IMG/VR virus record: IMGVR_UViG_3300044857_000313
Location: 23,140 to 87,139 of that record
Reading direction: 5' to 3' (one strand)
Length of the DNA stretch: 64,000 nt
From: a virus
This document shows positions 1 to 64,000 of this stretch, piece by piece. Made by a program: the position numbers and the translations under genes. Numbering within the stretch: position 1 is the stretch's first letter; every line of letters begins with the position of its first letter. Below the pieces are notes generated by a model. That model saw only the letters and a list, made by a program, of their open reading frames with translations, made no database searches and had not been told where the DNA came from.

Positions 1-55
1 AAGTCCGAAGCGTATCTAAGCGATTCTAAGCGTACCCGAAAGGAGAAGACACACA

Positions 56-1159
56 ATGCCAAGAACACGACAAAGACGAAATAAGGGTGAAGGTTCGATA
101 ACCAAGACACCCAATGGGAAGTACAAAGCCACCATCACGATTGGAGTGGGTATTGATGGCAAGCAAAAGAGGAAGTCGGTAACAAGAGACACCAAGCGAG
201 AAGTCATCGACGCCATCACGGAAATAAGACACAAATATAATATAGGTGATGTATCAAAGGGTGTGTCTAAGAGCGTCAAGGACGTTTGTGATGAGTTTTT
301 AGACACCAAGGAACAGAAACTCACTGTGTCCTCTTTCGTGTCTTACAAAATGCACATCAAGGCATTTAAAGAGGTGTTTGGAAATATGATGATGGAAAAT
401 ATAACAAAGACCATGATTGAGGATTACTTTAAGTCCCTGTCCCCTCATCATTATAAACCAACTACCTTAAAGACCAAGAAGGCTATATTGTCTATCTTCT
501 TTAGAGAAGCAAAGAAGGCAGGGTATATCAAAGAGAATATAATGGAGACAGCCAGTATCCCTATCAAGCGTGTCTTACCCAAGGCATCTACTATGATACT
601 CCCCACTCCTGAACAGTTCCATAGGATACTAGAGGAAGCGGAAAAGTATGCCCATTGGTATTATGTGCTCCTCTATTTTGCCTCTGTTACAGGAATGAGA
701 CGAGGAGAACTTTTAGGATTGAAATGGGACTGTGTGGATAAAGACACCAAGACGATCAGAATTAATAATCAAATAAACATCAAGGGTGTAGACAGTCCAT
801 TAAAGACCCCTGCGGCCTATCGGACAATTCATGTCACCCCAAAGGCTTTTGAGGAGCTAGACACACTGCCACATGAAGGAGCTTATGTTTTTTCGCGTCC
901 CAAAGCCCCTACAAGGCCTGTTACAAGAGCTATGGTGTCTTTGGCTACCAACAGGGTATTTAAGGCCGCTGAGGCCCCAAAGGGATTTACTTTTCATGAT
1001 GTAAGACATTATCACGCAACACAGCTTTTAAAGCATGGTATTAACCCAAAGGTTGTCAGTAGGAGATTAGGACACACATCGGTAGTTACTACCCTCAACA
1101 TCTACTTTAATTATCTCCCCAGTATGGACGAAGAGGCCAGTGTTGTCTTAGACACGTAA
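56..1159 (+). CDS. int: Tyrosine-type site-specific integrase
   Basis: 367-aa ORF with AAAGGAG Shine-Dalgarno upstream. Catalytic signature R (GMRRGELLGL), HxxR (HDVRHYHAT), H and Y (LGHTSVVTTLNIYFNY). Confidence 0.9.
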   Translation: MPRTRQRRNKGEGSITKTPNGKYKATITIGVGIDGKQKRKSVTRDTKREVIDAITEIRHKYNIGDVSKGVSKSVKDVCDEFLDTKEQKLTVSSFVSYKMHIKAFKEVFGNMMMENITKTMIEDYFKSLSPHHYKPTTLKTKKAILSIFFREAKKAGYIKENIMETASIPIKRVLPKASTMILPTPEQFHRILEEAEKYAHWYYVLLYFASVTGMRRGELLGLKWDCVDKDTKTIRINNQINIKGVDSPLKTPAAYRTIHVTPKAFEELDTLPHEGAYVFSRPKAPTRPVTRAMVSLATNRVFKAAEAPKGFTFHDVRHYHATQLLKHGINPKVVSRRLGHTSVVTTLNIYFNYLPSMDEEASVVLDT

Positions 1160-1324
1160 GTGCTTATAAGGTGCTTATATGAGAAATAGACACGAGTACA
1201 TGAAATTATAAATGGCTAAAAATAGCGGTTTTCCTCTGTTCTTAGCTATTTATAATTTTATTCCATATTCTATCAAGAATAAGACAACCATGCTGTTTAT
1301 AAGATATGTGAGTGCTTATAGGTG

Positions 1325-1567
1325 CTAAAGGGTAATACTTGTGTCTATCGAGTGGCGCAAGAACTCGTATAGACCTTTGCGGTGTATTCTCCAATGAGTA
1401 CCTATCTTAAATGCTTTCAAGGATTCATTATAGCACAAGGCGTAAACAGTAGACAAGGGAACTCCTAGCATCTCTGAAACTTCTTTAGGAGAGAAGGTAA
1501 GGCGAGTGTCCCATTTATGAGAAGGAGTTGAGGTGAAACCATCAACATCAATACTTAAATAGGCCAT
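1325..1567 (-). CDS. xis: Excisionase-like helix-turn-helix DNA-binding protein
   Basis: 80-aa ORF next to int. The segment FSPKEVSEMLGVPLSTVYALCYNESLKAFKIGTHWRI resembles Xis/AlpA-type winged HTH. Confidence 0.55.
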   Translation of the reverse strand: MAYLSIDVDGFTSTPSHKWDTRLTFSPKEVSEMLGVPLSTVYALCYNESLKAFKIGTHWRIHRKGLYEFLRHSIDTSITL

Positions 1568-1720
1568 AAGGCTCCTTTCGTAGACTAAAGGAAATCTTAG
1601 TAGACTTGAGATATGAAAAAATAGTAAGAAGCTTTAAGAATCTCTTTCTTTGATTTATCATCATCATCAACAATCATCATTAAAGAATCTCTAGTCCCAT
1701 ATCTGTCATAATAATAAAAT

Positions 1721-1754
1721 ATGAGGTTCTAGTCAGAACCGACTAGAACCTCAT
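1721..1754 (-). terminator. Hairpin terminator downstream of terL
   Basis: Perfect 14-bp stem atgaggttctagtc/gactagaacctcat with a 6-nt loop, followed on the minus strand by AUUUUAUUAUUAU. Copy B keeps the hairpin with a compensatory tc..ga to cc..gg change. Confidence 0.55.
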
Positions 1755-1792
1755 AGATTCTATTAGATACTATATATACTTTTCGTCTCTTT

Positions 1793-1815
1793 TCTTCGGT
1801 TGGTGCCACAATTAA
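1793..1815 (-). promoter_or_regulatory. Degenerate phage-RNAP promoter-like element (after terL)
   Basis: Minus strand TTAATTGTGGCACCAACCGAAGA versus family consensus TTAATTGTGCCACGTAGTGAAGA. Confidence 0.35.
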
Positions 1816-1819
1816 TTTT

Positions 1820-1842
1820 TTGTTTAATGGTGCCACAATTAA
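1820..1842 (-). promoter_or_regulatory. Degenerate phage-RNAP promoter-like element (after terL)
   Basis: Minus strand TTAATTGTGGCACCATTAAACA shares the upstream half of the promoter consensus. Confidence 0.3.
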
Positions 1843-1849
1843 TTTCTGT

Positions 1850-2464
1850 CTAATTATCATGTAGCTCTCTAATAGCTTTTATACATCTATTATTATGCGA
1901 ACTATTTGTATAATTAGGCAATACGGATTCATTCAGCCAATCCTCAAGCTGTTCAGCTGTCAGCTCTGTAAGTTGACTATCTTCATCCACATCCATGCGC
2001 TCCATAAAATAAGACACCCCAATAGTCAGGGCATCCAATCTATCATCATGACTTAGGGCGTTCTTATCACGACATAAGCGTGTCATTTGATAAATCAGGG
2101 AATAATGATAGTCCTGTTGGAAGACCTTAAAATCCTGTTCTACTACTGGACGATTCACAATTAGCTTATGCCGCATCATAACCGGCTCTAGGGTGTCTAT
2201 CATACGCAATTCCTTTTGCCCTCTATTGGTAACAGGTTCAATGCCGCAAGGGTGGATTTTATTGAAGATAGGTGTCATCAACTTAGTGAACATGCCATCC
2301 CCAAAGTTATCTTCGGGAACTACAACATCCACATCCCAGAACTTAGCACGATTTGCCATCTGAGTCAGCGTCAAGTCCGAATATCCCTCTTTAAAGCCCC
2401 CTACATCCATAAGGAACAAATAGCCATTCAGGTACTTTAAGATTGCATAGACTGTTTCGTCCTT
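1850..2464 (-). CDS. terL: Terminase large subunit, exon 2 (C-terminal nuclease part)
   Basis: Collinear with residues ~362-565 of intact copy-B TerL (45244..46941). Exon 1 plus exon 2 total 1698 nt, exactly the length of the copy-B gene. Confidence 0.85.
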   Translation of the reverse strand, partial: KDETVYAILKYLNGYLFLMDVGGFKEGYSDLTLTQMANRAKFWDVDVVVPEDNFGDGMFTKLMTPIFNKIHPCGIEPVTNRGQKELRMIDTLEPVMMRHKLIVNRPVVEQDFKVFQQDYHYSLIYQMTRLCRDKNALSHDDRLDALTIGVSYFMERMDVDEDSQLTELTAEQLEDWLNESVLPNYTNSSHNNRCIKAIRELHDN

Positions 2465-4608: not shown

Positions 4609-5063
4609 TCATCCTCTCTCCATACTACATACTTTTAAATCTTTGTGTGTCTTCCCAAATATAATGATTGCACTAGGGAAAGGCGCACTATTCTTACTGT
4701 TTCCAAATTTCAAACATCCTTTGATGAAACGAATCTCTGAGGCTTGCATGGCGTACTCATGCCACCACTTTGTGTCTGTTCGTGAAGGTACGAGGCAGAC
4801 AACGATTGTCTCTGCTTCCATTGCTTTCTTCATCCAAGCTCCTATTTTTTTTTTCCATAGGGTGGATTCATCCAACAGACACCCTGCCAGTCTTGAGCTA
4901 GACCGTCATCAAGGGGTGAAAAGAACTTAGAGCATTTTGCATTTTCAGAGGTAGCACATACATCTATATCAAAATGAAATTCATCATTCAATCTATTAAA
5001 TAACTCTTGTGGTGTCTCCCACACTTCATTTTCACTACTATATAAAACCTTATTTATCGCCAC
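4609..5063 (-). pseudogene. Phage Dam-family DNA N6-adenine methyltransferase, frameshifted in an A10 tract
   Basis: ORFs 4842..5063 and 4609..4875 together are collinear with the intact copy-B gene. Motifs WETPQELF, DVCAT.ENAKC, NPPYG, SRTDTKWWH. Coding-strand A10 (4845..4854) versus A8 in copy B. Confidence 0.8.
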
Positions 5064-9296: not shown

Positions 9297-12200
9297 TTAT
9301 TTAGCTTTCAAACTATTTAATTTTGCCAGTGTGTCTATAGCCTGTGTATAGGGGATAAAATCAGGAATAGGCGCCAAGTTTAATAACGTCCTCAAATCCT
9401 TTTGTGTCCCCTTGCTGGTAGCTAGTCGATAGGCACTGCGAATTGGTTTCCATGTCATATCCGACAAGGTATCCACAGCAGGTAACTGTTGGACACTATT
9501 GCCCACAAAGTCCCCAAAGTCTTTAGGGGGATTATTCCGATACTGTGATACTGTTGTTCTGATTGTAGGAGAACCGTACATAGCTTCCCATCCATCATTT
9601 ACAACACCCATAGGCGACAAGAAACCTGTTCGGAAAAATGCGGCCTTTGCTAGGGCCTTGTCATTCAGATAGTTTTCCTTGAGGTAGTTAGCGGCGTCTG
9701 TCTGTCCCAGCGCATACAGAGTGGCCATCTTAGCGCCATTACGAGCGGCAAAAGCGGCTGTGTTGGTCATAAGAGAAAGAGCAAATGCCATGGCATCCTG
9801 AGCTTCATGCTGTTGAATCATTCGCATAAACTGAGCATTGTTTGAGCGCATATTGAAGTCTTTAAACATCATGACAAGACGCATTAAAGAGTTTGTGTCT
9901 TTCAGCATATTTCTGTTGCCTTCGGACGAACTCAATAAGACACTCTTTTCCACCTGATTCTGCATCAGATCATACCAAGCCCAGAAGGTATCAGGACTTT
10001 CTTTTCTCCATGCATCTACATCAAAACCATCTGCAACAGTTCCTTTCTTGCCCTCCCACTTCACATAGGTACGCAAGTCTTTTTTCATCTGTGCAAGGTC
10101 TACGTGTCTGCCAAGAGCCTTGATATTTGCCTTGCTGAATGGATTACGTAACGCATTGAAGGTTTCTCCATGCGCCCAACGAATCGAATCTGTAATGGCC
10201 GCACTACGAGCAGAGCGCACCATTGTGTCTGTCATATGCCCAAGCATGTTAATCTGTGAAGTGAACTTGCCCAGATTGTGTGTCATATCAGCCGCACTAA
10301 TCAATAGGTTGTCCACCCCAAAACCACGTTTAGACAAGGCATTACGGGTCTGTTTGTCTCCCCAATTCCCACGGAAAATGTAGCGTTCTACAGGTTCCCC
10401 AAAGACATGCCACGAGAGGTCTTCAACCATCTTAGAATTAGCTTTCCCAAGACGAACATCCTGTACGAATTTACGCAAGGGATTGAAGACACCAAATACC
10501 TGTTTTAGACCACCATAGGCAATAGCACCCCCTAAGTCGCCTAACTGGTTCCATCCCATCGAGCCACCACGCTTGAAGTATGCAAAGTTGTTGAGAATCT
10601 TTGTGACTGCTGAACCCTCATCATAGATGTTTCGTTCGTAGTGGTCACGCATCCCACGGAGCCGTGCAATGTTGTCTAAGAACCACCGCTTATTTTTTTC
10701 GGCTGTGGAACTGTTGATACGCCCATCATTCCCCATGGAAGCAAGTCGCAATTCATGGAGTACCTTCTTCACGAAAGCACCATATTCATTAGCAGAACCA
10801 AGGACGTTACGGACTGCCACCTCTCCTGCAAAACGTCTATTCGTTCTGTTCAGGGTGTGTTCGAGGTCATAGTATCTAAGGTCATTATCAAATGAGAAGG
10901 CTTTAACAACATTACCTTCTGCATCTTTAATATCCATGACAACACCTGTGTCCATCGGAAGACGCCCACGGAAGAAGTTCAAGTCCCCAAGTTTAGAGGA
11001 AGCACCATCGGTGTCTAAGCCATCCAATTTATCCTCAAGAGGTTGCATGATGTTGTCTGCCCATTCCTTACACTTTTCATCCCTGAAATCATCAATTTCT
11101 TTATCTGTGGTGTCTTTGATAGTGATAGCACGTTTTTGTTCAAGTTCTTCTTTGACACGTTTAACTTTGGCATGGTTAATCTTTTCTGGATCTTTAAGTG
11201 CTTCTTTTTTTAAAAAGGTCTCTGCATCCTTAATTTCACGCTGTAGTCTCAGTTCTTTTTCACGTTTAATCATCTCCCCAATCAACTTACGAGACGTAGG
11301 CATATTGGAAGCGACTTGTGCATACTTCTCCATAAAAGCTCTCGCTCCCTTATCACCTGTGGTGGTGAAGTTAGACACAAACTCCCTATAAGCATCAGGG
11401 TCAACTAAGCGATGAAATTCATCGTCGACTGAATACCATCCATCCTCAATCAAGTTTCGTTCCATAGAACCTCCAAAAATAGAGGATGAATTTTTGCCAA
11501 GGTCAATACGGGTATCATAAAGACCCTGCAAAGACTTGACGGCCTTCATGACATTCTGGTCTACCATCGCATCATCAATGTTAATGTGTGTCTGCTGTTT
11601 AGACAAACTGTTGAACTTATCAATGACAAGCTTATCAAATTCTTGTCTATGGGCATCCCCCTTGCGGAAAGGATTAATGACACCCATTGTCCCATAGTGG
11701 TCACGTATCCACTCTTTACGAGCATCAAGAATATCGCCTTTGTACTTATCAAGCTGTCCCATGAGATAGCCCTTCATTCGTTCAGCAGATGGCATATTGG
11801 AACCATTACGAGATGTACCACGACGCTGTGCATCTTCCCATAATTCAGAGGCTTTCTTCGCAAGCGTCATAGACGGAGAATGATAAGCGGCCCCATATGG
11901 AGTACGAGTCAGCAATGTATTGTCCATCCACCCCGATAAGGTATTGACGGTCTTTTCAAAGGCTGTCTTTCCTTTTCGTTCCTGCGCCAATTCATCTGCA
12001 CTCTTTTCATAGTCGAGAAGACTTTCAGGAGCAAGCATGTTGTCTTTCGAGAAATGGACACCATTCTGAATAATGCTCCCATCGGGATTAACAATGATAC
12101 CCTGCTTTTTCAAGCTCTGATAGCGAACCGCTGTATTGACCATGTCGAGAATCTCGTTGTTGGTGAATTTTGATTTATCACCAAACCCCATTTCCTTTAG

Positions 12201-14411: not shown

Positions 14412-14432
14412 TGTGTCTTATCTCCTTTCTAT

Positions 14433-19954: not shown

Positions 19955-19960
19955 GGTGTC

Positions 19961-27060: not shown

Positions 27061-28980
27061 CTAATGACAATCAAACCAATTATGTCCAATGATACCTTCT
27101 GTATCTAATTGAATATGAAAATGAAAATATTCTTGTGTGTCTCTCATCGCCTGCTGGGCTTCTTCACACACAATCTTTGCAATTTCTTCTGTTCTACACG
27201 CAATCTGTTGCTCATCGTGTATCCACGCCATGAGTGCAAAATCGCCATCCCATCCATGTCTTAATCCTCTCGCCAATAATCGCTCCTCTGTCGTGACAAT
27301 CCACTTCTTGCATATCAAAGCACCTGCTGATTGCAAGAGCAGATTTAAGGCACTGTGAGGACTTCTTACATGTAGTTTGCGTCTGTCAAGACCATAGAGG
27401 AAATGGCGTTTCCATGTAACCTTAGGTTTCCCATGGCACTGTTTATAATCAATAGGGTAGACAAGTGCATTTTCTACAGCCTGTCTGAGCTTCGCAATAG
27501 CAGGAATGGCCTTATTGAATTTCTTCTTAATCTGCTTTCCCTGTCCTGCTGAACCCCCTATGATTTTACCAATCTTTGCGTCTCCTGCTCCATACAAATA
27601 AGCGTAGATAAACGTCTTCGCCTGATTGCGTGTTGGCAATCCTGCGGCTTTCTGATTCATAGTATGAATATCACCATTCAGAATCGTATGGGCATATTGG
27701 CCCCCATCATACTTATACATGAAGTGGGCAAGACAACGGAGTTCAAGACCACAAGCGTCTATCCCTGCTTGCCACCATCCGTCAGGTACTCTAAAGAGTT
27801 CTCGACATTCCTTGCCGTACGGACTACCTACATGGGGTACTTGTGCGACGTTCGGTCTGGAATGAGTAGCACGACCACTAACAGCCCCATTAGGGATAAC
27901 AGAACCATGGATATTACCATCCTTTCCAATCATAGACAACCAAGCATTTTTACCGTCTGCGAGTTGTCCTAGACGCTTTTTGAGCATCAAGGACTCCTCA
28001 AGTACAGACACAACAGACTTCACTTCATCAGGAGCTTGAGGGTCTTCCTTCATAAATCCCATGCTTTCATCATCAATCTTCAATCGACACTGTGACAAGT
28101 CAACATCATCCGCATCCGTGTCTTCCACATCATAGCAATCAATGTTTGAGGGTGAATAACCGTAATGTGTTCGTAATAGCCATTCAATCTGTTGTCTGCT
28201 ATTTGGATTAAAGTCTTTATACTTCTGAATGGGAACCCCCGCTTTATAGCCAAGGCGTTTGTTGTCTCTTTTCGGTACGAAAATCTTATCAGGTACACGA
28301 GGTACAAGCTGAATTAATTTTGCTGTCAAGACACCTGCTCTGGCACGTAAGGTAGCTTCTAGTTCTTTTGCTTTTTCAAGGTCAAAGGGAAATCCATTCT
28401 TTTCCTGTTTAGACATCAACCATGCTACTTCATGCTCAAGCTTTATGGCTTTTGGTGCATAATCGTATGAAGCCAGCTTTTCATAGAGCTTCACCGTTAC
28501 AACTACGTCCTGCTTATTGTAAGCAAGCATTTCAGGATTGTAACAAGCCCACGCATCTTCTTCCTCTCCATATGTACCCTTTAGTTCACCTAAACGATAC
28601 CCCCAAGCCTTTAGGCTATGGGATTTATACAGCTTAGAGGGGAGCTGTTTCTTTCGGATAAGTCCTGCGTCCATGTCTTCGACATGAGAATAGATGAGCC
28701 GCGACAAAACAAGGGTGTCTACTACATCCTTATGCATATCATGCGTAATCTCAAACCACGGAAAAAGTTTTGCCAAGGTGGGAAGGTCATAATTAATAAC
28801 ATTGTGTCCACAAAGACACACCCCTCTTTTCCATGCGTCATATAACTCATGAACACCTTGCTCTGCGTGTACATCATCGTATTGCTTCATCTGCTGTGTG
28901 TCTGTATCATAGACACTCAAGCAAAAAAGCTTCGTAACGTCGGCATATAAGCCGTTCGTTTCAATATCAAAGACTAACAT
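27061..28980 (-). CDS. DNA polymerase, family A (T7 gp5-like) with 3'-5' exonuclease
   Basis: MLVFDIETNGL exo I motif, GHNVINYDL, and pol motifs RNQAKTFIYAYLYGAG and HDEQQI. Confidence 0.9.
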   Translation of the reverse strand: MLVFDIETNGLYADVTKLFCLSVYDTDTQQMKQYDDVHAEQGVHELYDAWKRGVCLCGHNVINYDLPTLAKLFPWFEITHDMHKDVVDTLVLSRLIYSHVEDMDAGLIRKKQLPSKLYKSHSLKAWGYRLGELKGTYGEEEDAWACYNPEMLAYNKQDVVVTVKLYEKLASYDYAPKAIKLEHEVAWLMSKQEKNGFPFDLEKAKELEATLRARAGVLTAKLIQLVPRVPDKIFVPKRDNKRLGYKAGVPIQKYKDFNPNSRQQIEWLLRTHYGYSPSNIDCYDVEDTDADDVDLSQCRLKIDDESMGFMKEDPQAPDEVKSVVSVLEESLMLKKRLGQLADGKNAWLSMIGKDGNIHGSVIPNGAVSGRATHSRPNVAQVPHVGSPYGKECRELFRVPDGWWQAGIDACGLELRCLAHFMYKYDGGQYAHTILNGDIHTMNQKAAGLPTRNQAKTFIYAYLYGAGDAKIGKIIGGSAGQGKQIKKKFNKAIPAIAKLRQAVENALVYPIDYKQCHGKPKVTWKRHFLYGLDRRKLHVRSPHSALNLLLQSAGALICKKWIVTTEERLLARGLRHGWDGDFALMAWIHDEQQIACRTEEIAKIVCEEAQQAMRDTQEYFHFHIQLDTEGIIGHNWFDCH

Positions 28981-29030: not shown

Positions 29031-30238
29031 TCACGTTCAATCATGGGAATAATACCGTGCTTCTTAAGTAGCTGATATAAGAACAAGCGTCCTTTTTGTG
29101 TCCATTCAGTCTGCATTTTACAAGCAGTGCGTCCACTGGATAAAGTTAAATGGAAGGTCTTACTATGAGTATAACCTTTATTCTGGTACTTAGCATACAG
29201 TAACCACTGTTCTCTGAGCTTATAAATAACATGTAGTGCATGAAGCATTTCATTGAATACCTTAGCACTCATCCCATAGTCTTTTGCAATTACTGTTATT
29301 GGGACAGTATTATTGCTAGACAAGATAAGGTCGGTGTAAGCGGCTTTTGGTTTTAATTCGCCGATTACCTGTTTTGCACTGGCCGCTTCCAGTTCGGCAC
29401 ACTTTCTTGCTTCTCGTTCAGCTTTCAGTTCCGTAGCCAATTTAATGAGGGTATCTGGATTTAGCAGAACTTCTTCAATTTTCTCGGGTGTTAAGTACGC
29501 CCCATGTTTACGGATTGCTGGGAGAACTTCATCAGCCAGAACAGCCTGGAACTTCTGTGCCGCTTCATTGCTGGCCTTGAATCCCAGCCGGTACACCATG
29601 TTTTCCGGAAGAAAATCATCTTTCCCCACAAGTGGGGAAAATCCAAATTCATGAAGATACTGGTTGACTCTGTCCCATCGGATGTATTCAACACCGTTCT
29701 TTTCTTGCGTAAATCCAAATCCTCGCGCCACGTCTTCGGCATTCAGATAGGCCGTACCATTTTCCTTATCCAAGTATCCGCGGACGTTATTGATATTTAT
29801 AATTTCATGCGTGCTTCTGCTCCTTTCAAACGAGTCTGTATCCTCGCATTGGAGTGCGTCTTCATTCGTCATTGTTTCGGCGTTAGCGGTGTCCCCGCCG
29901 GTCTTTCTGATTGCCGGAAGAACCTCGCTTGTTACCCAGCGTTTAAACTTTTTGGCTGTCGGAAGCTTTGACCACATTACTAAGCTGTATAAGCCCGATT
30001 CGTTGATGAAACTTGGATACTGGTTACGACCAAGAGAGTCTTTGATGGATAGGGTAGCATTTCGTGCCCCCATCTTTTTGTCTTCATCATCCACACGGTT
30101 ACGAAGTGCTTGGTTGTGATTTGTATAACCAAGAGCTGTAGCCACATCTTTACCAACAAACCAAGGTTCGCCATTAATTAATATTGTACGTACCTTACCA
30201 AATGCCTTATTTTCAAAGATTATTAATTCGTTACTCAT
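28994..30238 (-). CDS. Bro-N / KilAC (ANT) domain antirepressor-like protein
   Basis: The N-terminal segment FENKAFGKVRTILINGEPWFVGKDVATALGY looks like a Bro-N domain. A second Bro-like repeat and an ANT-like C-terminus follow. The last 11 codons duplicate the end of ORF 30284..30469. Confidence 0.75.
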   Translation of the reverse strand: MSNELIIFENKAFGKVRTILINGEPWFVGKDVATALGYTNHNQALRNRVDDEDKKMGARNATLSIKDSLGRNQYPSFINESGLYSLVMWSKLPTAKKFKRWVTSEVLPAIRKTGGDTANAETMTNEDALQCEDTDSFERSRSTHEIININNVRGYLDKENGTAYLNAEDVARGFGFTQEKNGVEYIRWDRVNQYLHEFGFSPLVGKDDFLPENMVYRLGFKASNEAAQKFQAVLADEVLPAIRKHGAYLTPEKIEEVLLNPDTLIKLATELKAEREARKCAELEAASAKQVIGELKPKAAYTDLILSSNNTVPITVIAKDYGMSAKVFNEMLHALHVIYKLREQWLLYAKYQNKGYTHSKTFHLTLSSGRTACKMQTEWTQKGRLFLYQLLKKHGIIPMIERDDTEAEDLEKLR

Positions 30239-30283
30239 ATTAAGTTCTCCTTCCAACTATAAATATTTAGACGCACTAATTGC

Positions 30284-30469: not shown

Positions 30470-30482
30470 TAAGACACCCCCC

Positions 30483-32267: not shown

Positions 32268-32808
32268 TCTCCACCTTCTTCCAAAATTTGTGTGTCTCAT
32301 CCAAAAAGCAAGGCTGAACAAACACCACATTGTCATTTTTATCTAAACGGTAAGACTGCGAGATGTAGTAAAAGCGTTGATTTGTCCGAGGACTTTCAAG
32401 GCCACCTAAAGTCTCAACATAGGGGCCTGTCTTCAGCCAAGTACAATGCCCTTCAACTGCAATCATCTTGTCATGTTCTTCATCATCACTCCCACTATAC
32501 AGCCCTGTAGGAGCAATAAAGGACAAATCACTGAGGAGAGCGATTAAAGATTCATCTGTGATATGCTTATTATTTGTACCACCCATTACAACAATAGCGT
32601 TTGCCCCTGCATCAATGGCGTCCTGTGCTTCTTCTAAAACATCAATAAGGGGCGTTAAGGGTACATCTTCTTTCTGTAATTCTGGACTGTGACAGCCAAC
32701 ACAATGCTGTTTGCAAGCCCCTAATTCAATCGCATAGGCCAGTTTATCAGGCAATTCGTTGAATGTAATATCTGTATTAACAACAGGGTACTTTAAAACT
32801 CTTGACAT
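32251..32808 (-). CDS. nrdG: Anaerobic RNR activating enzyme (radical SAM)
   Basis: CKQHCVGC (CxxxCxxC) cluster motif; adjacent to and overlapping nrdD. Confidence 0.75.
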   Translation of the reverse strand: MSRVLKYPVVNTDITFNELPDKLAYAIELGACKQHCVGCHSPELQKEDVPLTPLIDVLEEAQDAIDAGANAIVVMGGTNNKHITDESLIALLSDLSFIAPTGLYSGSDDEEHDKMIAVEGHCTWLKTGPYVETLGGLESPRTNQRFYYISQSYRLDKNDNVVFVQPCFLDETHKFWKKVENVTKG

Positions 32809-37296: not shown

Positions 37297-37339
37297 GTTT
37301 TATGCTCCTTTCAAAAACTGAATACTTGAATACTTTCTT

Positions 37340-37362
37340 TCTTCACTACGTGGCACAATTAA
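37340..37362 (-). promoter_or_regulatory. Phage-RNAP promoter (consensus copy 1 of 3 tandem)
   Basis: Minus strand TTAATTGTGCCACGTAGTGAAGA. Same length and layout as the T7 promoter (TAAT..N13..G start). Confidence 0.65.
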
Positions 37363-37388
37363 AAAAGACACCACTTGAAGACTTTCTT

Positions 37389-37411
37389 TCTTCACTACGT
37401 GGCACAATTAA
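37389..37411 (-). promoter_or_regulatory. Phage-RNAP promoter (tandem copy 2)
   Basis: Identical 23-mer. Confidence 0.65.
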
Positions 37412-37440
37412 AAAAGACACCATGGAAGATTGTTTTTCTT

Positions 37441-37463
37441 TCTTCACTACGTGGCACAATTAA
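37441..37463 (-). promoter_or_regulatory. Phage-RNAP promoter (tandem copy 3)
   Basis: Identical 23-mer. Confidence 0.65.
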
Positions 37464-37479
37464 ATGTTTGTGTCTTATC

Positions 37480-37699
37480 CTTCGATAAAGAGAAAAAGAC
37501 ACACAAAAAGAGAAATATTTAAATTATTTATATTAATTATTAATTATCATCAATAATAAATAATAAAAGAGAAATATTTAAATTATTTATATTAATTATT
37601 AATTATCATCAATAATAAATAATAAAAGAACTATAAGTATCTTAAAGTATTTTTAAGTATATATAGTTACTTTAAGTATCTTATAGTTCTTTTCTCTTC
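37480..37699. other. AT-rich origin-of-replication-like region
   Basis: Very AT-rich, with 2 x 59-bp tandem repeats and an imperfect inverted repeat. Lies just downstream of the RNAP gene and is flanked by phage promoters, like the T7 primary origin. Confidence 0.45.
37506..37623. repeat. 59-bp AT-rich tandem repeat (2 copies plus partial third)
   Basis: aaaagagaaatatttaaattatttatattaattattaattatcatcaataataaataat repeated exactly. Confidence 0.9.
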
Positions 37700-37722
37700 T
37701 CTTCACTACGTGGCACAATTAC
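37700..37722 (-). promoter_or_regulatory. Phage-RNAP promoter immediately downstream of RNAP gene
   Basis: Minus strand GTAATTGTGCCACGTAGTGAAGA (one mismatch). Confidence 0.6.
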
Positions 37723-37736
37723 AAATCATGTTATAT

Positions 37737-40346
37737 TTATGCAAAACAATACTTACTATTGACTACATCATCAAGATTTAGGTTCCCCTTCGAGGGAATT
37801 TTAGGTATTTCTTTTCCTTCGGGTAACATATATTCAACATCCTTTAACCACTCCTCTAAGTAATTGTGGTCTTTGTACATCTTGACTAATTCAGTACGAA
37901 TAGCCCTGAATAAGTCCCCTGCATGTTCAATATCTGTGCCAAAGCTATCATGAATCATGAAAAAGTTGATATTTCCTTTTTCAGATTGATTCATGATTAC
38001 CCTTTGCATGTGACACGCATCCATTGAATGAATAAAGTTAGGGGCGATTGCTTGTGCTTGACCCCTTGTGTCTATATCGGTGCTGTCTTGGGGTACATAG
38101 ATGCGAATGAAACCGCCATTAAAGCGCATACGGCACGTTTCCATGTTAGGTACAAATTTATTCTGTTGGATAGGTAAGCCATTAGGGCTTGTCCATGCTA
38201 CAGCTTCCCCATTCTTGCCAATCATCCCTGCAATCTTTTTCAGCCATTCCATGCCCTCTACGGCCTTTACAACCGTGGTGGTTACAGCGTCCCAAATGAG
38301 ACCTGCCATGTAGTTTGCGGCCTGTGAGCGACTCAAGAAGATAGGATTGTCTTTATGTTCATCCAACCATGGTTTGATAATGTCTGATTTGAGATTTTCG
38401 GAGAAGCCATAAGTTCTCGACCCATACGCAAGGGTCATGACAGAACGCTTGCACACTTTGCGCTTGATACCGTCCGAACCGAATTTTTCGCGGCCATACA
38501 TCAGCCATTCAGACGCAAGCTCTTTTGTGCCATATGCAATGCACTTTTTGCCCTTGTTGTCAAGTACAAAATCGCCTGTTTTCTTATCTTTTTTGAAGTC
38601 ATCTGCTGTCCCTTCTAATGCGTCTTTATGTAAGACAACATTTACTTTATCGGCCACAACTTGATAAATGTCATGTACGGTTTCGTCGGGAATTAGATTG
38701 ACGTTCTTACCCCCTATTTCATCCGCAAGAAGCATAGAGAAGTGCTGTAGACCTGAGCATGTACCATCAAAGCTAATAGGAAGACCTGATTTGAATCCAA
38801 CAGCAGACCCGTCATGCTCAGCTTGATAGACACGGAGTCTTTCAAACTCAAAGCAGAAGGCCAGAAATTCCATGGGACTTTCATCACCTGCCACTTCGTC
38901 CCACCATGTGTACGTTAAAGGGGAAGCGGCACTCTGTAAAATGTTGTCTTCATTGTCAAGTACCCATTTGATACGGTCATCAAAGGGAATCTTGTCAAGA
39001 CCTGCGAATCCTGCGCCTGCGATGTAGAACCATTTTAATGATTCTTCATTTGTCAAGGGTGTTGGCTCTGCAAATAGCAAAAGAGCTTTTTGTGTGTCGT
39101 CGCCTTGCGGATTCAAGGCAGGACACATTGGGTAGATACGGCCACGATAGTCTAAGTTCCATGGGAAGTAGATTTTTTCATACTTGCTATACTTTTTAGC
39201 ACAACCTAACGTGGTATTTGTTCTAAGAACCTTGGATACTCTGGCCCGTTCGTGCTTGTAATACACAACAAGCCGTTTCTTGTGCGCTTCTAACTCCTCG
39301 GGTGTCGGGTCAATCAAATGTGGAATTTTGGGCGTTTCGTCCGTTCTGGGAAGGCCCCCTAAGCCCCCATGGTTCTCCATGATAGACACCATGGTATCAA
39401 GTACACGCTGATTGATTATGAATGGAGTGGCTTGCAGGGCATTTACACATTTAAAAAGCCATGCCAAGTCAAGCTGTTCGCATTTTCGGAGATATTGAGT
39501 CATAAATACATTTTTTTGGTTAAAATTAGCACGGATGAAATGTGCAAAGGGGGCATTAGCTCCGTAATAAGCACCTTCCCATACTGTTGTCCATGGTTTG
39601 GGTGGGATGACACAAGGACTAAATTTATAGCTATTCAACGCCATAATATCAATACTTTTCGCCCATGTCTGTACAAGCCAATCATTCGCTTTAAGTAGCT
39701 TTTGATTCCCTTCTGCTTTATAGTCAAAGTAGCCACTCCCTTTTATGACTGCTTCTAGGATAACAGTCATTAGCTTATAAAGACCTTCTTTATCCATAGT
39801 TTGGGGCGCAAAGTTCATAATTTTATATGCTTTTTGTGCATATCGCACTTTAAATGTCATTTGCATACGATGTTTCAGGCCATCTTCAAAAAAAGCTCCA
39901 TCTTGTCGTGTTGCCTGCTTTAAGTAGTCGTAGCTAATGACTTCTTCAGTGAAAGAAGACACCAGTTCATGTAAGTTATTGTTAAAGTCTACATATGTAT
40001 CCTCAGAGGTATGCATGACAAAACCAATCAAAGTATTTAGAGTAGAGGTTATGCATGTCTTAATAAGTGTGTCTTCATCCCCTTCATATAAGCTTTTAAG
40101 TTGGTTCACAACACCTTGATATTTAGGCACTACGCCACGCTTTTTCTGGGGAAATAAAACGTTTTTAACGTTCGTATAGCAGTCTGAAAAGACATGCTCC
40201 ATCAGCTTACTGCCCACTTTTGTTTCCCCTGCTGTGCCTTTTAAAGCCGCTTGTTCATAGGTAGCACGTAGCACCTTTTCTGCAAAGTCTTTTGATTCTT
40301 GTTCAAGTGCTAATTGTTCCTGTAAAGTACCTTTGATTTTTTCCAT
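37737..40346 (-). CDS. Single-subunit DNA-directed RNA polymerase (T7 gp1-like)
   Basis: DGTCSGLQHFSML, KRSVMTLAYGS, IHDSFGT and C-terminal FCFA match T7 RNAP motifs. Start set at MEKIKG with a GAAAGGAAGG SD. Confidence 0.95.
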   Translation of the reverse strand: MEKIKGTLQEQLALEQESKDFAEKVLRATYEQAALKGTAGETKVGSKLMEHVFSDCYTNVKNVLFPQKKRGVVPKYQGVVNQLKSLYEGDEDTLIKTCITSTLNTLIGFVMHTSEDTYVDFNNNLHELVSSFTEEVISYDYLKQATRQDGAFFEDGLKHRMQMTFKVRYAQKAYKIMNFAPQTMDKEGLYKLMTVILEAVIKGSGYFDYKAEGNQKLLKANDWLVQTWAKSIDIMALNSYKFSPCVIPPKPWTTVWEGAYYGANAPFAHFIRANFNQKNVFMTQYLRKCEQLDLAWLFKCVNALQATPFIINQRVLDTMVSIMENHGGLGGLPRTDETPKIPHLIDPTPEELEAHKKRLVVYYKHERARVSKVLRTNTTLGCAKKYSKYEKIYFPWNLDYRGRIYPMCPALNPQGDDTQKALLLFAEPTPLTNEESLKWFYIAGAGFAGLDKIPFDDRIKWVLDNEDNILQSAASPLTYTWWDEVAGDESPMEFLAFCFEFERLRVYQAEHDGSAVGFKSGLPISFDGTCSGLQHFSMLLADEIGGKNVNLIPDETVHDIYQVVADKVNVVLHKDALEGTADDFKKDKKTGDFVLDNKGKKCIAYGTKELASEWLMYGREKFGSDGIKRKVCKRSVMTLAYGSRTYGFSENLKSDIIKPWLDEHKDNPIFLSRSQAANYMAGLIWDAVTTTVVKAVEGMEWLKKIAGMIGKNGEAVAWTSPNGLPIQQNKFVPNMETCRMRFNGGFIRIYVPQDSTDIDTRGQAQAIAPNFIHSMDACHMQRVIMNQSEKGNINFFMIHDSFGTDIEHAGDLFRAIRTELVKMYKDHNYLEEWLKDVEYMLPEGKEIPKIPSKGNLNLDDVVNSKYCFA

Positions 40347-40386
40347 GGTATTACCTTCCTTTCTAGTAGGCGGAACTATTAATATT

Positions 40387-40409
40387 TCTTCAATACGTGG
40401 CACAATTAA
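40387..40409 (-). promoter_or_regulatory. Phage-RNAP promoter upstream of the RNAP gene
   Basis: Minus strand TTAATTGTGCCACGTATTGAAGA (one mismatch), ~45 nt upstream of the RNAP ATG. Confidence 0.55.
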
Positions 40410-40510
40410 TTTCATAAAAGCAAACTAATGTTTGGTACTTAGGTATAAAATTGGCTTGTCCCTGCCGTGTTGGTAAAGACACGCCTAGATTAGAACAGTT
40501 GTTCGTATTG

Positions 40511-42805: not shown

Positions 42806-42832
42806 AATAAAGTACCTTCCTTTCAATTCCTT

Positions 42833-43153: not shown

Positions 43154-43177
43154 AATACAGTACCTTCCTTTCTAAAA

Positions 43178-44122: not shown

Positions 44123-44140
44123 GGTGCTTCTCAAGGATGC

Positions 44141-44188
44141 TAAGAGAGTCTAAGAGAGTCTAAGAGAGTCTAAGAGAGTCTAAGAGAT
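44141..44188. repeat. 10-bp tandem repeat (TAAGAGAGTC x4 plus partial)
   Basis: Four perfect units and one 8/10 unit. Confidence 0.95.
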
Positions 44189-44248
44189 ACTGGCGAATAC
44201 CAACAGATGGCAGAACACATGTAAAACCACGACTGAACAAAATTTCAA

Positions 44249-44394
44249 AAAACATATGAACAACCATTCATATATAAAATAAAACAGATAACAGTTGATC
44301 CAGTCAACTATCTAAAAAATAAACATATGAACAACTATTCATATATAAAACAAAACAGATAGTCAACTAGTTGATTCAGTCAACTATCTAAAAA
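44249..44394. repeat. Two ~72-bp direct repeats rich in palindromes (ATATGAA-N6-TTCATAT; AGTTGA-N5-TCAACT)
   Basis: aaacatatgaacaac[ct]attcatatataaaa..cagata..gttga..tcaactatctaaaaa occurs twice. Confidence 0.85.
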
Positions 44395-47191: not shown

Positions 47192-47644
47192 TCATCCTCT
47201 CTCCATACTGCATACTTTTAAATCTTTGTGTGTCTTCCCAAATACAATAATTGCACTAGGGAAAGGCGCACTATTCTTACTGTTTCCAAACTTCAAACGT
47301 CCTTTGATAAAACGAATTTCATTCGCTTTCATTGCGTAGTCATGCCACCATTTTGTGTCTGTGCGTGAAGGTACAAGACAGACAACTGTTGTCTTTGCTT
47401 CCATAGCCTTCTTCATCCATGCCCCTATTTTTTTTCCGTATGGAGGGTTCATCCAACAGACACCCTGCCAATCATGTGATAAACCATCATCAAGGGGAGA
47501 AAAGAACTTAGAGCATTTCGCATTTTCAGGGGTGGCACATACATCTATATCAAAATGAAATTCATCATTCAAGCTATTAAATAAATCCTGTGGCGTCTCC
47601 CACACTTCATTTTCACTGCTATATAAAACCTTATTAATAGCCAT
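47192..47644 (-). CDS. Phage Dam-family DNA N6-adenine methyltransferase (intact)
   Basis: NPPYGKKIGAWMKKA is continuous here. A8 run at 47428..47435. Confidence 0.85.
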   Translation of the reverse strand: MAINKVLYSSENEVWETPQDLFNSLNDEFHFDIDVCATPENAKCSKFFSPLDDGLSHDWQGVCWMNPPYGKKIGAWMKKAMEAKTTVVCLVPSRTDTKWWHDYAMKANEIRFIKGRLKFGNSKNSAPFPSAIIVFGKTHKDLKVCSMERG

Positions 47645-47725
47645 TATGCTTCTCCTCACGAAAAATAAAACTCCCCATAGGTAAATACACCTAAAGGGAG
47701 TTACATAACTTCTACCCCCAAGATA

Positions 47726-57875: not shown

Positions 57876-57892
57876 TGTGTCTTATCTCCTTT

Positions 57893-61068: not shown

Positions 61069-63411
61069 CTATACCCCCTTTGTTCGTGTCATGTATAGAC
61101 AATCCCAATTCAGCCCTACAATAGAGAGGGGAACTGGCATGTCTGATTCAACTGCAATCGTAACGGATTCATTATTTGCATGAATAGGAACATCAAACTT
61201 TCCTGTTTCATTTTGCTTCTTCCCCAAGAGAGCTGAAGAAGTACCAAGAATCTTACTGGTCATCCGATATATATACTCTTTGCCCCCAAGGTAAGACACC
61301 CTGCAAGCCAAGAAACCTGTATGGTCATAGTTGATATGAATGTTCTTGATTTGTGTCCTTCCTTCTGCATAGGAGCTAATGTTTCCATTGTCGTTCTTTT
61401 TAAGGTAGAAGGTTGTGAAGACAGCCTTAAACAAATAAGGTTCCCCAACTACCAATTTCTTTCCTGCAAAGTTACCATCAAGATAGATACAGCCAGCATC
61501 ATCTGCTTTTAGATTTTCATGCAAGACACCATCATGAGTGACTACACAAAGACTCTGCAATGGTGTGGTGTCTGTGTAGGCATAAAGTGCCTTGAGGTCA
61601 AACTTTGTTCTTTCAGCTACATCATCATAGACACCATTGTCCATAACTCTCTTCTGGTCTAAATAGACACGATAAACTTCCGTATCGTCAAACTCTTTGA
61701 TATTTACGGAGAAGTCCATTTGCTCCATGGTAATCTGTGTTCCTCTGCGCATAAGCAGATATAAATAACTGCCGATGAAACCTGCACCATAAATCTCACC
61801 ATCAAAGACCCATTTAGACCACGAGGACTGAATACGTTCTTCATCGGCAAATAGATACTTGTAAAGGTAAATGGTGTCTGTCGCCCTGTTTGTCAGACAG
61901 AACAGCACATTTTCAGCCGTCGAGGTAATAATGTCATAGACACCTGCTTCAATATAGTTTGGGATGTGAGATGTAATGTCCTGTGCATTTTTCATCTGTG
62001 AAATATCCTGAACAGTATAGTATTCCCGAATTGTAGAGAAATCACCATGTTCAGAAGGGAAATATAAGTTCTTCCCTGCTACCTTTGGTTGACAGTCAGG
62101 AGAACTATTGAACTGCGTAATTTCTGTTGGGGACGCTGTTTTCGGTGTCAAGGTGGAATCAGCACGAATAATAAACTGTGTGTCGTTCGAGAAAGCGTAA
62201 AGGTCTTCTGAAAAGATAACACAATAATTAATCAGGTTCGCTTTTGTGGATGTAATCGGGACATCAATCCCATCTGTGTCTAACAGGTCATTGGCTGTTG
62301 TCATCCACCAATTAAAGTATTCCCCTGATTCAGACATGATGATGTTTTCACGAGAGGTAACACCTAGGCGATTACGATAAAAGAAGATACTGGACAAGGT
62401 ATAATTTACAAAAGATGGAGCAGGGTTACTCTCATCATCACCAACTTTTCGTTCATCCCAATCAAGAGCCTTAAATGTGAAAGTGTCATCTGCATTATGG
62501 ATGATGGCATGGGGCATGGTTGTCTTATCAAACTCAATGTTGATGTTGGGGCAAGCACACTCTTCCCACACATTACTGTCTTTTGAATACTTTACGTAAT
62601 AACTACCTTCACTTGCCCCATTCGGGTCACCTTTTACTTTGACACAATAGTTATCAGGAGCCGTAGCAGGAAGCAAGCTGAAACGCTGAATCGACTTTTT
62701 GAAGTTAATAAGTGCCTGATGGTTGAACCCATCGGCTGTCTGAACAAGACCATCACTCCGAATACGAATCCAATTATCTTGATGTTCTGTAGACACCCCA
62801 TTATTATTTAGCTGTTCATTGATGCGGTCTGCAATATAGTTGGTGTCTATCTGCTTCGTCTGTTCAGCGGCATCCCCATTCGGGCTTGTCCATGCGCATT
62901 TAGACACACCATCAATCCAAACCTGATAGGTACGGCCATACTGCCCTTGACGAACATAAAGCATACTACCCTGATTACTAAAGTAGTCTGGTGACTTCTT
63001 GCTGGACAACTGCACTGTTTTTGTATTGTTCAGTACAAAAGTGTAGTCAGCTACTGTCATAACTCGTAAGTTATCACGAGGAGTGTTAGTAGCTAAATAA
63101 GCATCATCTTCAATGTTGACAGTCTTTTCGTTCCCCTTCATGTCGTAAATCTTGACAGTGTTATTTGCAAAGACAACCATGTATTTCTGTTGCTTATCCC
63201 TATCAATGAAATGAACAAGAGGTTTACTGCCTTTGGTAAGGTTCAATCCTGTTAATGTTTTTAGATGGACTGTAGGGACACGTTTCTGTAGCCCTGAAAC
63301 CTCTGTCGAGAAACCGTTAATCTGTTCCTCAAGCTGTTCAGGGAAGCGTAAGAGGGGTGGCTGTTGAGACACACCTTGTACAAAGTTCTTAATGCTCTGT
63401 GAGTATAACAT
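61069..63411 (-). CDS. Tail tubular protein B (gp12-like)
   Basis: Ortholog of 17612..19954. Confidence 0.75.
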   Translation of the reverse strand: MLYSQSIKNFVQGVSQQPPLLRFPEQLEEQINGFSTEVSGLQKRVPTVHLKTLTGLNLTKGSKPLVHFIDRDKQQKYMVVFANNTVKIYDMKGNEKTVNIEDDAYLATNTPRDNLRVMTVADYTFVLNNTKTVQLSSKKSPDYFSNQGSMLYVRQGQYGRTYQVWIDGVSKCAWTSPNGDAAEQTKQIDTNYIADRINEQLNNNGVSTEHQDNWIRIRSDGLVQTADGFNHQALINFKKSIQRFSLLPATAPDNYCVKVKGDPNGASEGSYYVKYSKDSNVWEECACPNINIEFDKTTMPHAIIHNADDTFTFKALDWDERKVGDDESNPAPSFVNYTLSSIFFYRNRLGVTSRENIIMSESGEYFNWWMTTANDLLDTDGIDVPITSTKANLINYCVIFSEDLYAFSNDTQFIIRADSTLTPKTASPTEITQFNSSPDCQPKVAGKNLYFPSEHGDFSTIREYYTVQDISQMKNAQDITSHIPNYIEAGVYDIITSTAENVLFCLTNRATDTIYLYKYLFADEERIQSSWSKWVFDGEIYGAGFIGSYLYLLMRRGTQITMEQMDFSVNIKEFDDTEVYRVYLDQKRVMDNGVYDDVAERTKFDLKALYAYTDTTPLQSLCVVTHDGVLHENLKADDAGCIYLDGNFAGKKLVVGEPYLFKAVFTTFYLKKNDNGNISSYAEGRTQIKNIHINYDHTGFLACRVSYLGGKEYIYRMTSKILGTSSALLGKKQNETGKFDVPIHANNESVTIAVESDMPVPLSIVGLNWDCLYMTRTKGV

Positions 63412-63417
63412 GGTGTC

Positions 63418-63984
63418 TTATCTCCTTTCCAATGCACTCTGCATCCCTATGGTCTGAAACATGTTGGAACCTGTATCTATACAATACTGGACAATATCTG
63501 CATAAGCTCTTGATTCTTCAATCCGTAACTCCTGAGATACATTTTCGTCACCAAGGTAACGTTCCTGAAATAAAATAGCCGCTTCTGCTGTGATGAATGT
63601 TTTGAACTCATCAGGCAAATCCTCAAAGTCAACGGCTTCAATGATGGTAAGATGCACCTCTTCATTGAAGGTGTCTGTCTTCTCTGTAAGGTTGTACAGA
63701 AAATCCCCACGTTTTACATAAACTGCACCATTCGTCGCTGTAATCTTTATCCATGAGGGATTATATCGAATCTTTTTGCTGTTGGTGTCTGGCATAATAG
63801 TTACATTGGTCAAGGTGTTGAACTGCCATCCTTGACGCTGAATGTTTCGAGACACCGTAGCAAGTAGACTTCTTGCATTATCAACATCAATAGATTCACT
63901 CTCTGTTAAGCTATTGACAGGAGCTTCCCCAATGCCTGAAAGAATCAGATTGATTGCGTCTAACTCTGTGGATACAAATAGCAT
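63418..63984 (-). CDS. Tail tubular protein A (gp11-like)
   Basis: Ortholog of 19961..20527. Confidence 0.75.
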   Translation of the reverse strand: MLFVSTELDAINLILSGIGEAPVNSLTESESIDVDNARSLLATVSRNIQRQGWQFNTLTNVTIMPDTNSKKIRYNPSWIKITATNGAVYVKRGDFLYNLTEKTDTFNEEVHLTIIEAVDFEDLPDEFKTFITAEAAILFQERYLGDENVSQELRIEESRAYADIVQYCIDTGSNMFQTIGMQSALERR

Positions 63985-64000
63985 CTTTTCACTCCCTTTA

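Follow-up and report, generated by a model that had tools for sequence, protein, structure and literature searches.

Genome-wide enrichment of the hexamer AGACAC in a clade of T7-like temperate phages: a possible signature of primase recognition sites

Background

Short DNA words that recur across a genome are known from several bacterial and phage systems, and we compare with them the hexamer AGACAC (GTGTCT on the opposite strand), which is dispersed over a 64,000-base stretch of viral DNA (IMG/VR virus record IMGVR_UViG_3300044857_000313, positions 23,140 to 87,139; hereafter the window). Chi (GCTGGTGG in E. coli, AGCGG in B. subtilis) and the FtsK-orienting polar sequences (KOPS) are features of host genomes with a strong orientation bias. 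AGACAC resembles them as a short, asymmetric, strongly over-represented word embedded in coding sequence, but it shows neither enrichment in flanking host DNA nor orientation bias. The DNA uptake sequence (DUS) of Neisseria, the uptake signal sequence (USS) of Pasteurellaceae, and the highly iterated palindrome HIP1 of cyanobacteria are words of 8–12 bases that belong to the host genome and hence to all its phages. They share with AGACAC a genome-wide over-representation in both orientations and in coding and non-coding DNA, whereas AGACAC is confined to 1 phage clade and is missing from host flanks and co-resident phages. In mycobacteriophage L5, about 30 asymmetric 13-bp repressor sites, the stoperators, are spread across the genome and oriented with transcription. 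The likeness here is that a temperate phage has numerous asymmetric sites for 1 phage protein scattered over its genome; in contrast to the tens of transcription-oriented stoperators, AGACAC has 171 six-base sites per genome, mostly inside genes and in both orientations (128 sense and 101 antisense gene copies in the window).

Among the closest described systems is the site recognized by the primase-helicase gp4 of phage T7. The T7 primase starts at 5'-GTC-3', in which the C is cryptic, has 5'-(G/T)2GTC-3' as its productive sites, and makes the primers ACCC, ACCA, ACAC, and ACAA (PMC12839067); G/T-rich template flanks raise its binding and the length of its primers (PMC6136900). The primase of phage SP6 recognizes 5'-GCA-3' (PMC2034472). 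The window shares with T7 the GTC core, a word (GTGTC) that is itself a T7 site, an extension made of A and C only, a primase-helicase of the same type, and sites on both strands and in an origin-like region; T7's own sites are also weakly enriched in the T7 genome. The differences are the number of specified bases (6–8 in this clade, 3–5 in T7), an extra T required 3' of the cryptic C, the degree of enrichment (8.5-fold in the clade, 1.4- to 1.7-fold in T7), and the fact that the clade's site is deduced from sequence. In the literature searched, we found no report of primase-site over-representation or of T7-like phages of Veillonella or Megasphaera, and, although the recognition sites of primases are themselves well described, none of a genome-wide 8- to 9-fold enrichment of such a site or of any other hexamer restricted to 1 phage clade.

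Enrichment and specificity of AGACAC

The window contains 249 copies of AGACAC (+ strand, 114; − strand, 135), against 28–29 expected from base composition. This 8.6-fold excess makes AGACAC the top over-represented hexamer in the window by a wide margin (z ~41). Maximal-order Markov z-scores collapse above k = 6, so the 5-mers AGACA and GACAC and the 7- to 8-mers that extend the word are explained by AGACAC itself. The original prediction, made from the sequence alone, had described a roughly 10-fold enrichment along one stretch; the large excess holds, but the window comprises 2 related T7-like temperate phages, which are 92% identical over ~17 kb in a self-comparison. Phage 1 extends from position 1 to ~44.4 kb, and the start of phage 2 follows, near 44.4–44.9 kb. 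The hand counts on which that prediction was based were exact throughout (16 copies in 1..2200, 8 in 27061..28980, 8 in 30470..32336, and 5 in 9297..10380).

AGACAC is a true six-base motif in which all 6 bases matter. In phage 1, its single-base variants all lie between 0.4- and 2.9-fold, compared with 8.5-fold for AGACAC, the best of them being AGACAA (2.9-fold), AGACAG (2.4-fold), GGACAC (2.3-fold), and ACACAC (2.1-fold).

Codon usage, dipeptide content, or duplication within the window could in principle produce such an excess as a by-product, given that about one-quarter of the copies are orthologous duplicates between the 2 phages and that most copies lie in frames encoding the common dipeptides DT, VS, KT, and GV. 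We built codon-preserving null models from 68 greedy open reading frame (ORF) calls covering 93.5% of the window. When synonymous codons were shuffled gene by gene, with the proteins kept, 75 ± 6.5 copies resulted, and a shuffle of codon order gave 51 ± 5, compared with the 249 observed. Phage 1 alone, with 171 copies against 20 expected, retains an 8.5-fold excess, the same fold as the whole window, and non-coding DNA is denser in copies (5.3 per kb) than coding DNA (3.8 per kb); 91% of copies lie inside coding sequence. Both shuffles, phage 1 alone, and the non-coding density thus refute an artefact of this kind, to which we give virtually no chance, and they bear out the earlier claim that the word does not follow from codon usage. 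Within genes, the frames used are those of common dipeptides (xDT, VS, [K/Q/E]T, and [G/R]V), and frames needing RH or xCL are avoided, so AGACAC is placed wherever the protein permits.

The bases flanking the motif are also biased. The 2 bases 3' of AGACAC (+6 and +7) are A or C in ~80% of copies, and because this holds separately in sense, antisense, and non-coding copies, it is a preference at the DNA level. The base before the motif is rarely G. An A or T at this position had been proposed as part of the motif; it precedes 15 of the 16 copies in 1..2200, but only 73% over all copies, a tendency rather than a rule. The resulting consensus is H-AGACAC-M-M, or 5'-K-K-G-T-G-T-C-T-D-3' on the opposite strand. 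Gap lengths between copies are roughly exponential (coefficient of variation, 0.99), a scatter near random, and no preferred spacing, pairing, or orientation of the kind that would suggest a dimeric binder was found in the window. The sequence AAGGAGATAAGACAC lies directly 5' of 2 start codons in each of the 2 phages (Table 1), which agrees with an earlier remark that a motif-bearing sequence precedes several start codons. The word as part of the phage promoter was ruled out, as the promoter consensus AATTGTGCCACGTAGTGAAGA does not contain it.

Motif-free insertions

The 2 largest motif-free gaps in the window coincide with inserted DNA. The largest, from 28911 to 30472, holds an island of 1,253 bp encoding a Bro-N/KilAC antirepressor, and the second largest, from 2193 to 3471, holds a group I intron that interrupts the phage 1 gene for the large terminase. 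The intron carries an ORF (2468–3046, 192 aa) that is homing-endonuclease-like, with a weak NUMOD/I-HmuI-like match, and it is absent from phage 2, whose large terminase gene runs uninterrupted at 45244–46941. The antirepressor island is a recent insertion, since all close relatives have its 2 flanks joined directly. If the intron and island were as dense in copies as the remainder of phage 1, they would together hold ~8.4; none was observed, which gives P(0) ~2e-4. Both the reported absence of copies from these 2 elements and the idea that the motif marks the native backbone therefore hold, with the island missing from all close relatives and the intron from phage 2. By the same measure, the integrase gene, which is rich in AGACAC, belongs to the backbone.

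In 9 close relatives (L005, L010, L011, L020, L021, L036, L037, L039, and L014), the DNA polymerase match spans 2.4–2.8 kb instead of 1.9 kb, which suggests inserted introns or inteins.

Distribution among relatives and hosts

A search for near-identical DNA among GenBank phages returned no close relative of the window phages, the best match having ~49% amino-acid identity. Many relatives were found in IMG/VR, and others occur as prophages in the genome collection, in Megasphaera hexanoica (85% DNA polymerase identity) and in 2 Veillonella isolates (56–57%). The carriers of the enrichment are T7-like phages of gut and oral Veillonellaceae bacteria. AGACAC was the top hexamer, at 7- to 9-fold, in all contigs of ~97% identity, and it remained enriched 4- to 8-fold down to ~55% DNA polymerase identity. 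The preferred word varies within the clade: AGACAA is on top in the group of 82–85% identity and in 1 group of 57%, AGACCC equals AGACAC in L029 and L051, and AAGACA is on top in L047–L049. The core shared by the clade is AGAC, with AC, AA, CC, and CA as favored extensions, and in the Veillonella prophage lineage, A or C makes up 75–78% at each of the 4 positions after AGAC and 68% at the fifth.

Outside this clade, the enrichment disappears. T7-like contigs with polymerase identity of 43% or less had AGACAC at ~1-fold. In ~17 kb of host DNA (54–55% GC) beside 2 related prophages, we counted 5 copies against 8.3 expected (0.6-fold), a small sample that represents the host of a relative and not that of the window phages. 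Sixteen unrelated phage contigs with a homologue of the antirepressor (up to 79% identity), whose hosts were not identified, had AGACAC at 0.0- to 1.2-fold. The absence of enrichment from host flanks, distant T7-like contigs, and antirepressor-sharing phages indicates that the word belongs to the phage lineage and not to its hosts or niche; a host-wide motif and a motif common to phages of the same niche were rejected on the host flanks and the antirepressor-carrying phages, respectively. Further, the hosts range over genera with 39–55% GC, and the motif tracks the phage lineage.

These data also bear on the proposal, made in the original prediction, of a Chi-like or nuclease-protective signal, which the host AddAB/RecBCD enzyme would read, and on a related one, an uptake sequence of the host. 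Equal use of the strands does not by itself decide against such a role, since protection toward both ends could be of advantage to a linear phage genome. The host flanks at 0.6-fold, the lack of enrichment in other phages that exchange genes with the window phage, the lack of orientation bias (114 vs 135 copies), and a motif that follows the phage lineage across host genera nevertheless make it very improbable.

In the integrated relatives (L083, L087, and L088), the integrase gene lies at the early-gene end of the prophage, and the junction with the host is ~170–270 bp from the integrase stop codon. In L087 and L088, the neighboring host genes comprise radC, maf, and one that encodes a class I aminoacyl-tRNA synthetase (Pfam tRNA-synt_1c), and GC content at the junction changes from 54–55% in the host to 41% in the phage.

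Conservation of sites

Between phage 1 and phage 2, 82–90% of AGACAC copies are conserved, compared with 63% of generic aligned 6-mers, and against a relative of 97% identity, the figures are 90% and 59%. The more distant L065, which prefers the same word, retains 41% of the sites (15% for generic 6-mers), whereas L006, which prefers AGACAA, retains 22% (18%). Site conservation well above background between close relatives indicates that the AGACAC sites are under purifying selection. At larger distances, the positions of sites turn over while their density is kept, the pattern expected of many weak sites for a trans-acting reader whose preference drifts.

Biased mutation, repair, or gene conversion by the phage replication machinery could instead let AGACAC accumulate without a selected function. 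A strand-symmetric, genome-wide enrichment would fit such a process, as would the absence of the word from recently inserted DNA, not yet converted, and the mild enrichment of the near variants AGACAA, AGACAG, and GGACAC. We nevertheless consider it quite unlikely: an 8.5-fold excess with 6 sharply specified positions lies far beyond known repair-driven biases, the conservation of sites in close relatives points to purifying selection, and no Vsr-like or nicking-repair gene was found in the window.

A gp4-type primase as candidate reader

The enrichment, the six-base specificity with its A/C extension, the restriction to 1 clade, the conservation in close relatives, and the turnover in distant ones are observed. 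We tentatively propose, at a little short of an even chance, that AGACAC represents, in primer sense, the site at which the clade's own gp4-type primase-helicase recognizes its template and initiates. The window encodes a predicted enzyme of this type (Table 1) with the full gp4 architecture in 1 polypeptide: a Cys4 zinc ribbon, the T7-type N-terminal fold, a TOPRIM domain, and a DnaB-like SF4 helicase. The corresponding Pfam matches are Zn_Ribbon_Prim (PF08273, weak), Helic-prim_T7_N (PF21268), Toprim_2 (PF13155), and DnaB_C (PF03796). Identity to T7 gp4 extends over all 530 aa, and the CxxC...CxxC zinc finger aligns with that of T7. The D-G-H triplet of the zinc finger, equivalent to D31-G-H33 of T7, is kept in the window phage and most of the clade; D31 and H33 have reportedly been implicated in reading the GTC site in work by Kusakabe and Richardson.

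The word itself follows the T7 rule. GTGTCT is the T7 site GTGTC plus a T, it contains GTC, and all enriched variants in the clade share AGAC/GTCT. With AGAC followed by AC, AA, CC, or CA, the variants reproduce the 4 T7 primers, using only A and C on the primer strand. Hexamers with GAC followed by 2 A/C bases make up ~1.6% of all hexamers, and a chance match to the T7 rule is therefore unlikely.

We infer the primase as the reader and priming density as the selected trait. The single-stranded template site would be 5'-K-K-G-T-G-T-C-T-3', or 5'-TTGTGTCTA-3' in the form of a template oligonucleotide. The zinc-finger and RNA-polymerase domains would bind GTC with its cryptic C and, in this clade, would also read the T on the 3' side, and the enzyme would start a pppA-C-A-C primer with a preference for A or C in its extension. 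A requirement for 6 to 8 bases, compared with 3 to 5 in T7, would leave only ~1 site per 4–5 kb per strand by chance. Selection on many weakly advantageous sites, acting in non-coding DNA as well as on the choice of synonymous codons and, to some extent, of dipeptides, could then have raised the density on both strands to ~1 per 500 nt. Wherever a fork or D-loop arises, dense sites would ensure frequent priming of the lagging strand and perhaps also frequent loading of the helicase. Recently arrived DNA, such as the intron and the antirepressor island, would have yet to acquire sites.

T7 (L089) and SP6 (L234) served as positive controls against the synonymous-shuffle null, with all 512 pentamers and 64 classes of the form KK+NNN ranked. 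In T7, GGTCA ranked 4th and GACCA 7th of the pentamers, and in SP6, GTGCA ranked 4th. The class KK+GTC ranked 6th of 64 in T7 and 20th in SP6, whereas KK+GCA ranked 4th in SP6 and 48th in T7. In an independent T7-like prophage lineage (L194), whose terminase is 52% identical to that of T7 and whose closest relatives are Rhizobium and Limnohabitans phages, the top pentamer was GGTCA, with 127 copies against 34 expected (3.7-fold), on both strands and with A or C favored next. Where the biochemistry is known, phages seem to be weakly enriched in their own primase site, and the clade of the window would stand at the extreme; such enrichment may be general, if so far unreported. That T7-like genomes as a rule have GTC in their top pentamer was not established: this held in 7 of ~36 outgroup loci, compared with 9% by chance, and several of these were codon effects of high GC content. 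Enrichment of the GAC+MM class in T7-like outgroups was uninformative.

The origin-like region (Table 1) has 5 motif copies within ~260 bp, at 37240, 37366, 37415, 37470, and 37497, of which 2 lie in a 49-bp tandem promoter unit and are therefore not independent. The region resembles the primary origin of T7, with its promoters phi1.1A/B and an AT-rich stretch, which in T7 contains AGACCC.

Several points weigh against a primase as the reader. Copies show no strand bias (80 on the + strand and 91 on the − strand of phage 1) and no switch at the origin-like region at ~37.5 kb, so the bias relative to the predicted origin for which the original prediction proposed to look was not found; the late region is even slightly richer in copies on the predicted leading-strand template. 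In 9 of 10 lineages, GTGTCT on the coding strand has a higher fold over the synonymous-shuffle null; in absolute terms, the 2 strands have the same excess, which leaves the result ambiguous and rescues no bias. T7's own primase sites also lack a clear strand bias, and an excess on the lagging strand may thus not be defining of primase sites. T7 is thought to need ~12–40 active sites, and the size of its Okazaki fragments is reported to be insensitive to the number of sites (PMC12839067). The need for ~170 sites is consequently not obvious. The enrichment in T7 and SP6 is weak (1.4- to 1.7-fold), and most other T7-like outgroups have no enrichment of the primase class. To our knowledge, there is no citable precedent in T7 for the requirement of a T 3' of the cryptic C. 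The zinc finger is identical in lineages that prefer AGACAC and lineages that prefer AGACAA. Shifts of the motif could not be linked to a change of the primase, with no mosaic pairs among the relatives; all genes diverge in parallel, so the shifts are not attributable specifically to the primase. Overall, the primase sites suggested in the original prediction are the best-supported reading, through the match to the T7 rule, the gp4-type gene, and the weak enrichment in T7 and SP6, with the missing strand bias left on the other side.

Other candidate readers

AGACAC could also be the site of another sequence-specific DNA-binding protein of the phage, bound as a monomer at many places and acting as a genome-wide prophage silencer, as a protective coat of the phage DNA, or as a tag by which phage functions distinguish phage from host DNA. 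The enrichment is strand-symmetric, even across coding and non-coding DNA, and specific to the phage clade as opposed to its host and co-resident phages; conservation of sites is limited to pairs of lineages with a common preferred word. Among the conserved early proteins are several of no known function, for example, a SprT-like zinc-ribbon protein (41262–41948), and the phages are temperate, a lifestyle in which a T7-like prophage would need tight silencing. We found no candidate protein, however, and no dimeric or phased arrangement of sites. For binders of duplex DNA, a monomer site of 6 bases extended only by A and C is unusual, but it is what a T7-type primase predicts, and the agreement with the T7 primers would have to be put down to chance. 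We regard such a protein as a serious rival to the primase, but as less probable. A particular form of it, a clade-specific self-tag on duplex DNA by which a phage protein, such as a conserved early protein, tells its own genome from the DNA of the host or of foreign phages, is unlikely in our view; it might spare the genome from the phage's own host-DNA-degrading nucleases or silence the whole prophage. In that case, the likeness to the T7 primase site would be a coincidence, or primase sites would have been co-opted as the tag.

DNA modification, also raised in the original prediction, would make AGACAC a target, for example, of N6-adenine methylation by a Dam-like enzyme of the phage, which would gain from dense modification. 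A Dam-like methyltransferase gene (PF05869) adjoins the terminase genes, asymmetric words of 5–6 bases are typical methyltransferase targets, and in GTGTCT the strand lacks adenine, which only the AGACAC strand carries; GATC is nearly absent (0.06-fold), so the enzyme is unlikely to serve GATC. The gene is frameshifted at an A-run in phage 1 (...NPPYGKKK / KKKIGAW...), and the same split occurs in the close relative L080, which could reflect phase variation or decay. Enrichment in phage 1 and L080 is nevertheless the same as in phage 2 with its intact copy. No homologue was detected in L160, L157, and L161, which are enriched 5.4- to 7.4-fold, or in a subclade of 61% identity that keeps the enrichment, and phages do not normally enrich their own methylation targets. 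Such a target is weakened as an explanation by the frameshift of the sole methyltransferase gene in phage 1 and the lack of a detected homologue in enriched close relatives, and we give it little chance. For a packaging or ejection signal, a further suggestion of the original prediction, the analysis gave no evidence for or against.

Implications

If the primase is the reader, this would be the clearest case known to us in which the template specificity of a phage replication enzyme has reshaped a whole genome, with effects on the choice of codons, on dipeptide content, and on non-coding DNA. The primase specificity of uncultured T7-like phages could then be read from genome sequence, and recently acquired DNA could be recognized in such phages by its missing sites. 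It would also raise the question of why this clade needs sites far denser than chance while T7 reportedly uses only about a dozen. The reciprocal weak enrichment in T7 (GTC class) and SP6 (GCA class) hints at a general effect of which this clade is the extreme. If the primase is not the reader, a word of 6–8 bases present at 170 copies per 44 kb under purifying selection points to a new DNA-recognition system of phages.

Gene content and other features of the window

Every gene in the window is on the − strand except the integrase gene. T7-like content includes a single-subunit RNA polymerase, SSB, endonuclease I, an amidase, the gp4-type primase-helicase, NrdD/NrdG, a DNA polymerase, a 5'-3' exonuclease, structural genes, and the large terminase. 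Phage 2 has no integrase at the junction with phage 1, and the 2 phages are therefore probably separate contigs joined end to end.

Table 1. Positions of features discussed in the text (window coordinates).
Feature	Position	Strand	Remarks
Dispersed AGACAC/GTGTCT	1..64000	both	249 copies; mean gap 257 bp; ~1 per 500 nt per strand
Candidate reader, T7 gp4-type primase-helicase	32793..34385	−	530 aa; Pfam domains; 40% identical to T7 gp4
Origin-like region	37300..37723	−	just downstream of RNA polymerase gene; promoter, two 59-bp AT-rich repeats, 3 tandem promoters
Group I intron in large terminase gene, phage 1	2463..3281	−	Rfam RF00028, 78.7 bits; 0 motif copies
Bro-N/KilAC antirepressor island	29031..30283	−	Pfam Bro-N and ANT; 0 motif copies
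AAGGAGATAAGACAC	14413..14427	−	directly 5' of start codon; also 19956–19970, 57877–57891, 63413–63427
Dam-like N6-adenine DNA methyltransferase, split	4609..5063	−	phage 1; 2 overlapping ORFs, 1 with NPPY; frameshift at A-run
Dam-like methyltransferase, intact	47192..47659	−	phage 2; PF05869, E = 4.5e-31
Tyrosine integrase	56..1159	+	Pfam Phage_integrase; motif-rich
T7-type DNA polymerase	27061..28980	−	8 motif copies; query used to collect relatives
Single-subunit T7-type RNA polymerase	37737..40415	−	892-aa ORF; relatives have PF00940 at same position

Near the junction of the 2 phages, at 44129–44187 and 44247–44361, we identified a five-fold tandem 10-bp repeat, TCTAAGAGAG, and two 44-nt repeats with an inverted repeat, GTTGATCCAGTCAAC, after each of them. 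They are possible features of genome ends or attachment sites. Three 75-nt repeats, 72–96% identical, lie 5' of successive small early genes (42453–42527, 42829–42903, and 43174–43248). Each apparently has a GC-rich inverted repeat, and they may be early promoters, terminators, or RNA elements. Tandem repeats of 21 nt (7 aa) occur in runs in the tail-fibre-like genes at 8379–8760 and 51478–52041, in regions that are motif-poor and rank among those least conserved between phage 1 and phage 2.

Avoidance of words of the restriction-site type is extreme in 1–44400, including GATC (0.06-fold) and CCGG (0.09-fold). GGACC has 0 copies, and CCAGG and GCAGC have 1 each, compared with ~50 expected. Many palindromes of 6 bp are missing from this region, among them AGATCT, AGTACT, ATCGAT, GAATTC, TCTAGA, and CTGCAG.

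A second word, GCCGCT, is over-represented mainly at 8–22 kb and 52–63 kb. In phage 1, the coding strand carries 42 copies where 4.3 are expected, and the reverse orientation has 12. Over the whole window, its complement AGCGGC, which contains the B. subtilis Chi word AGCGG, is strand-specific (67 copies on the + strand vs 15 on the − strand). GCCGC exceeds the synonymous-shuffle null (66 vs 19), and many GCCGCT copies stand at spacings that are multiples of 3, which suggests in-frame GCC-GCT. Only the closest subclades show the enrichment of GCCGCT; L065, L033, and L047 lack it.

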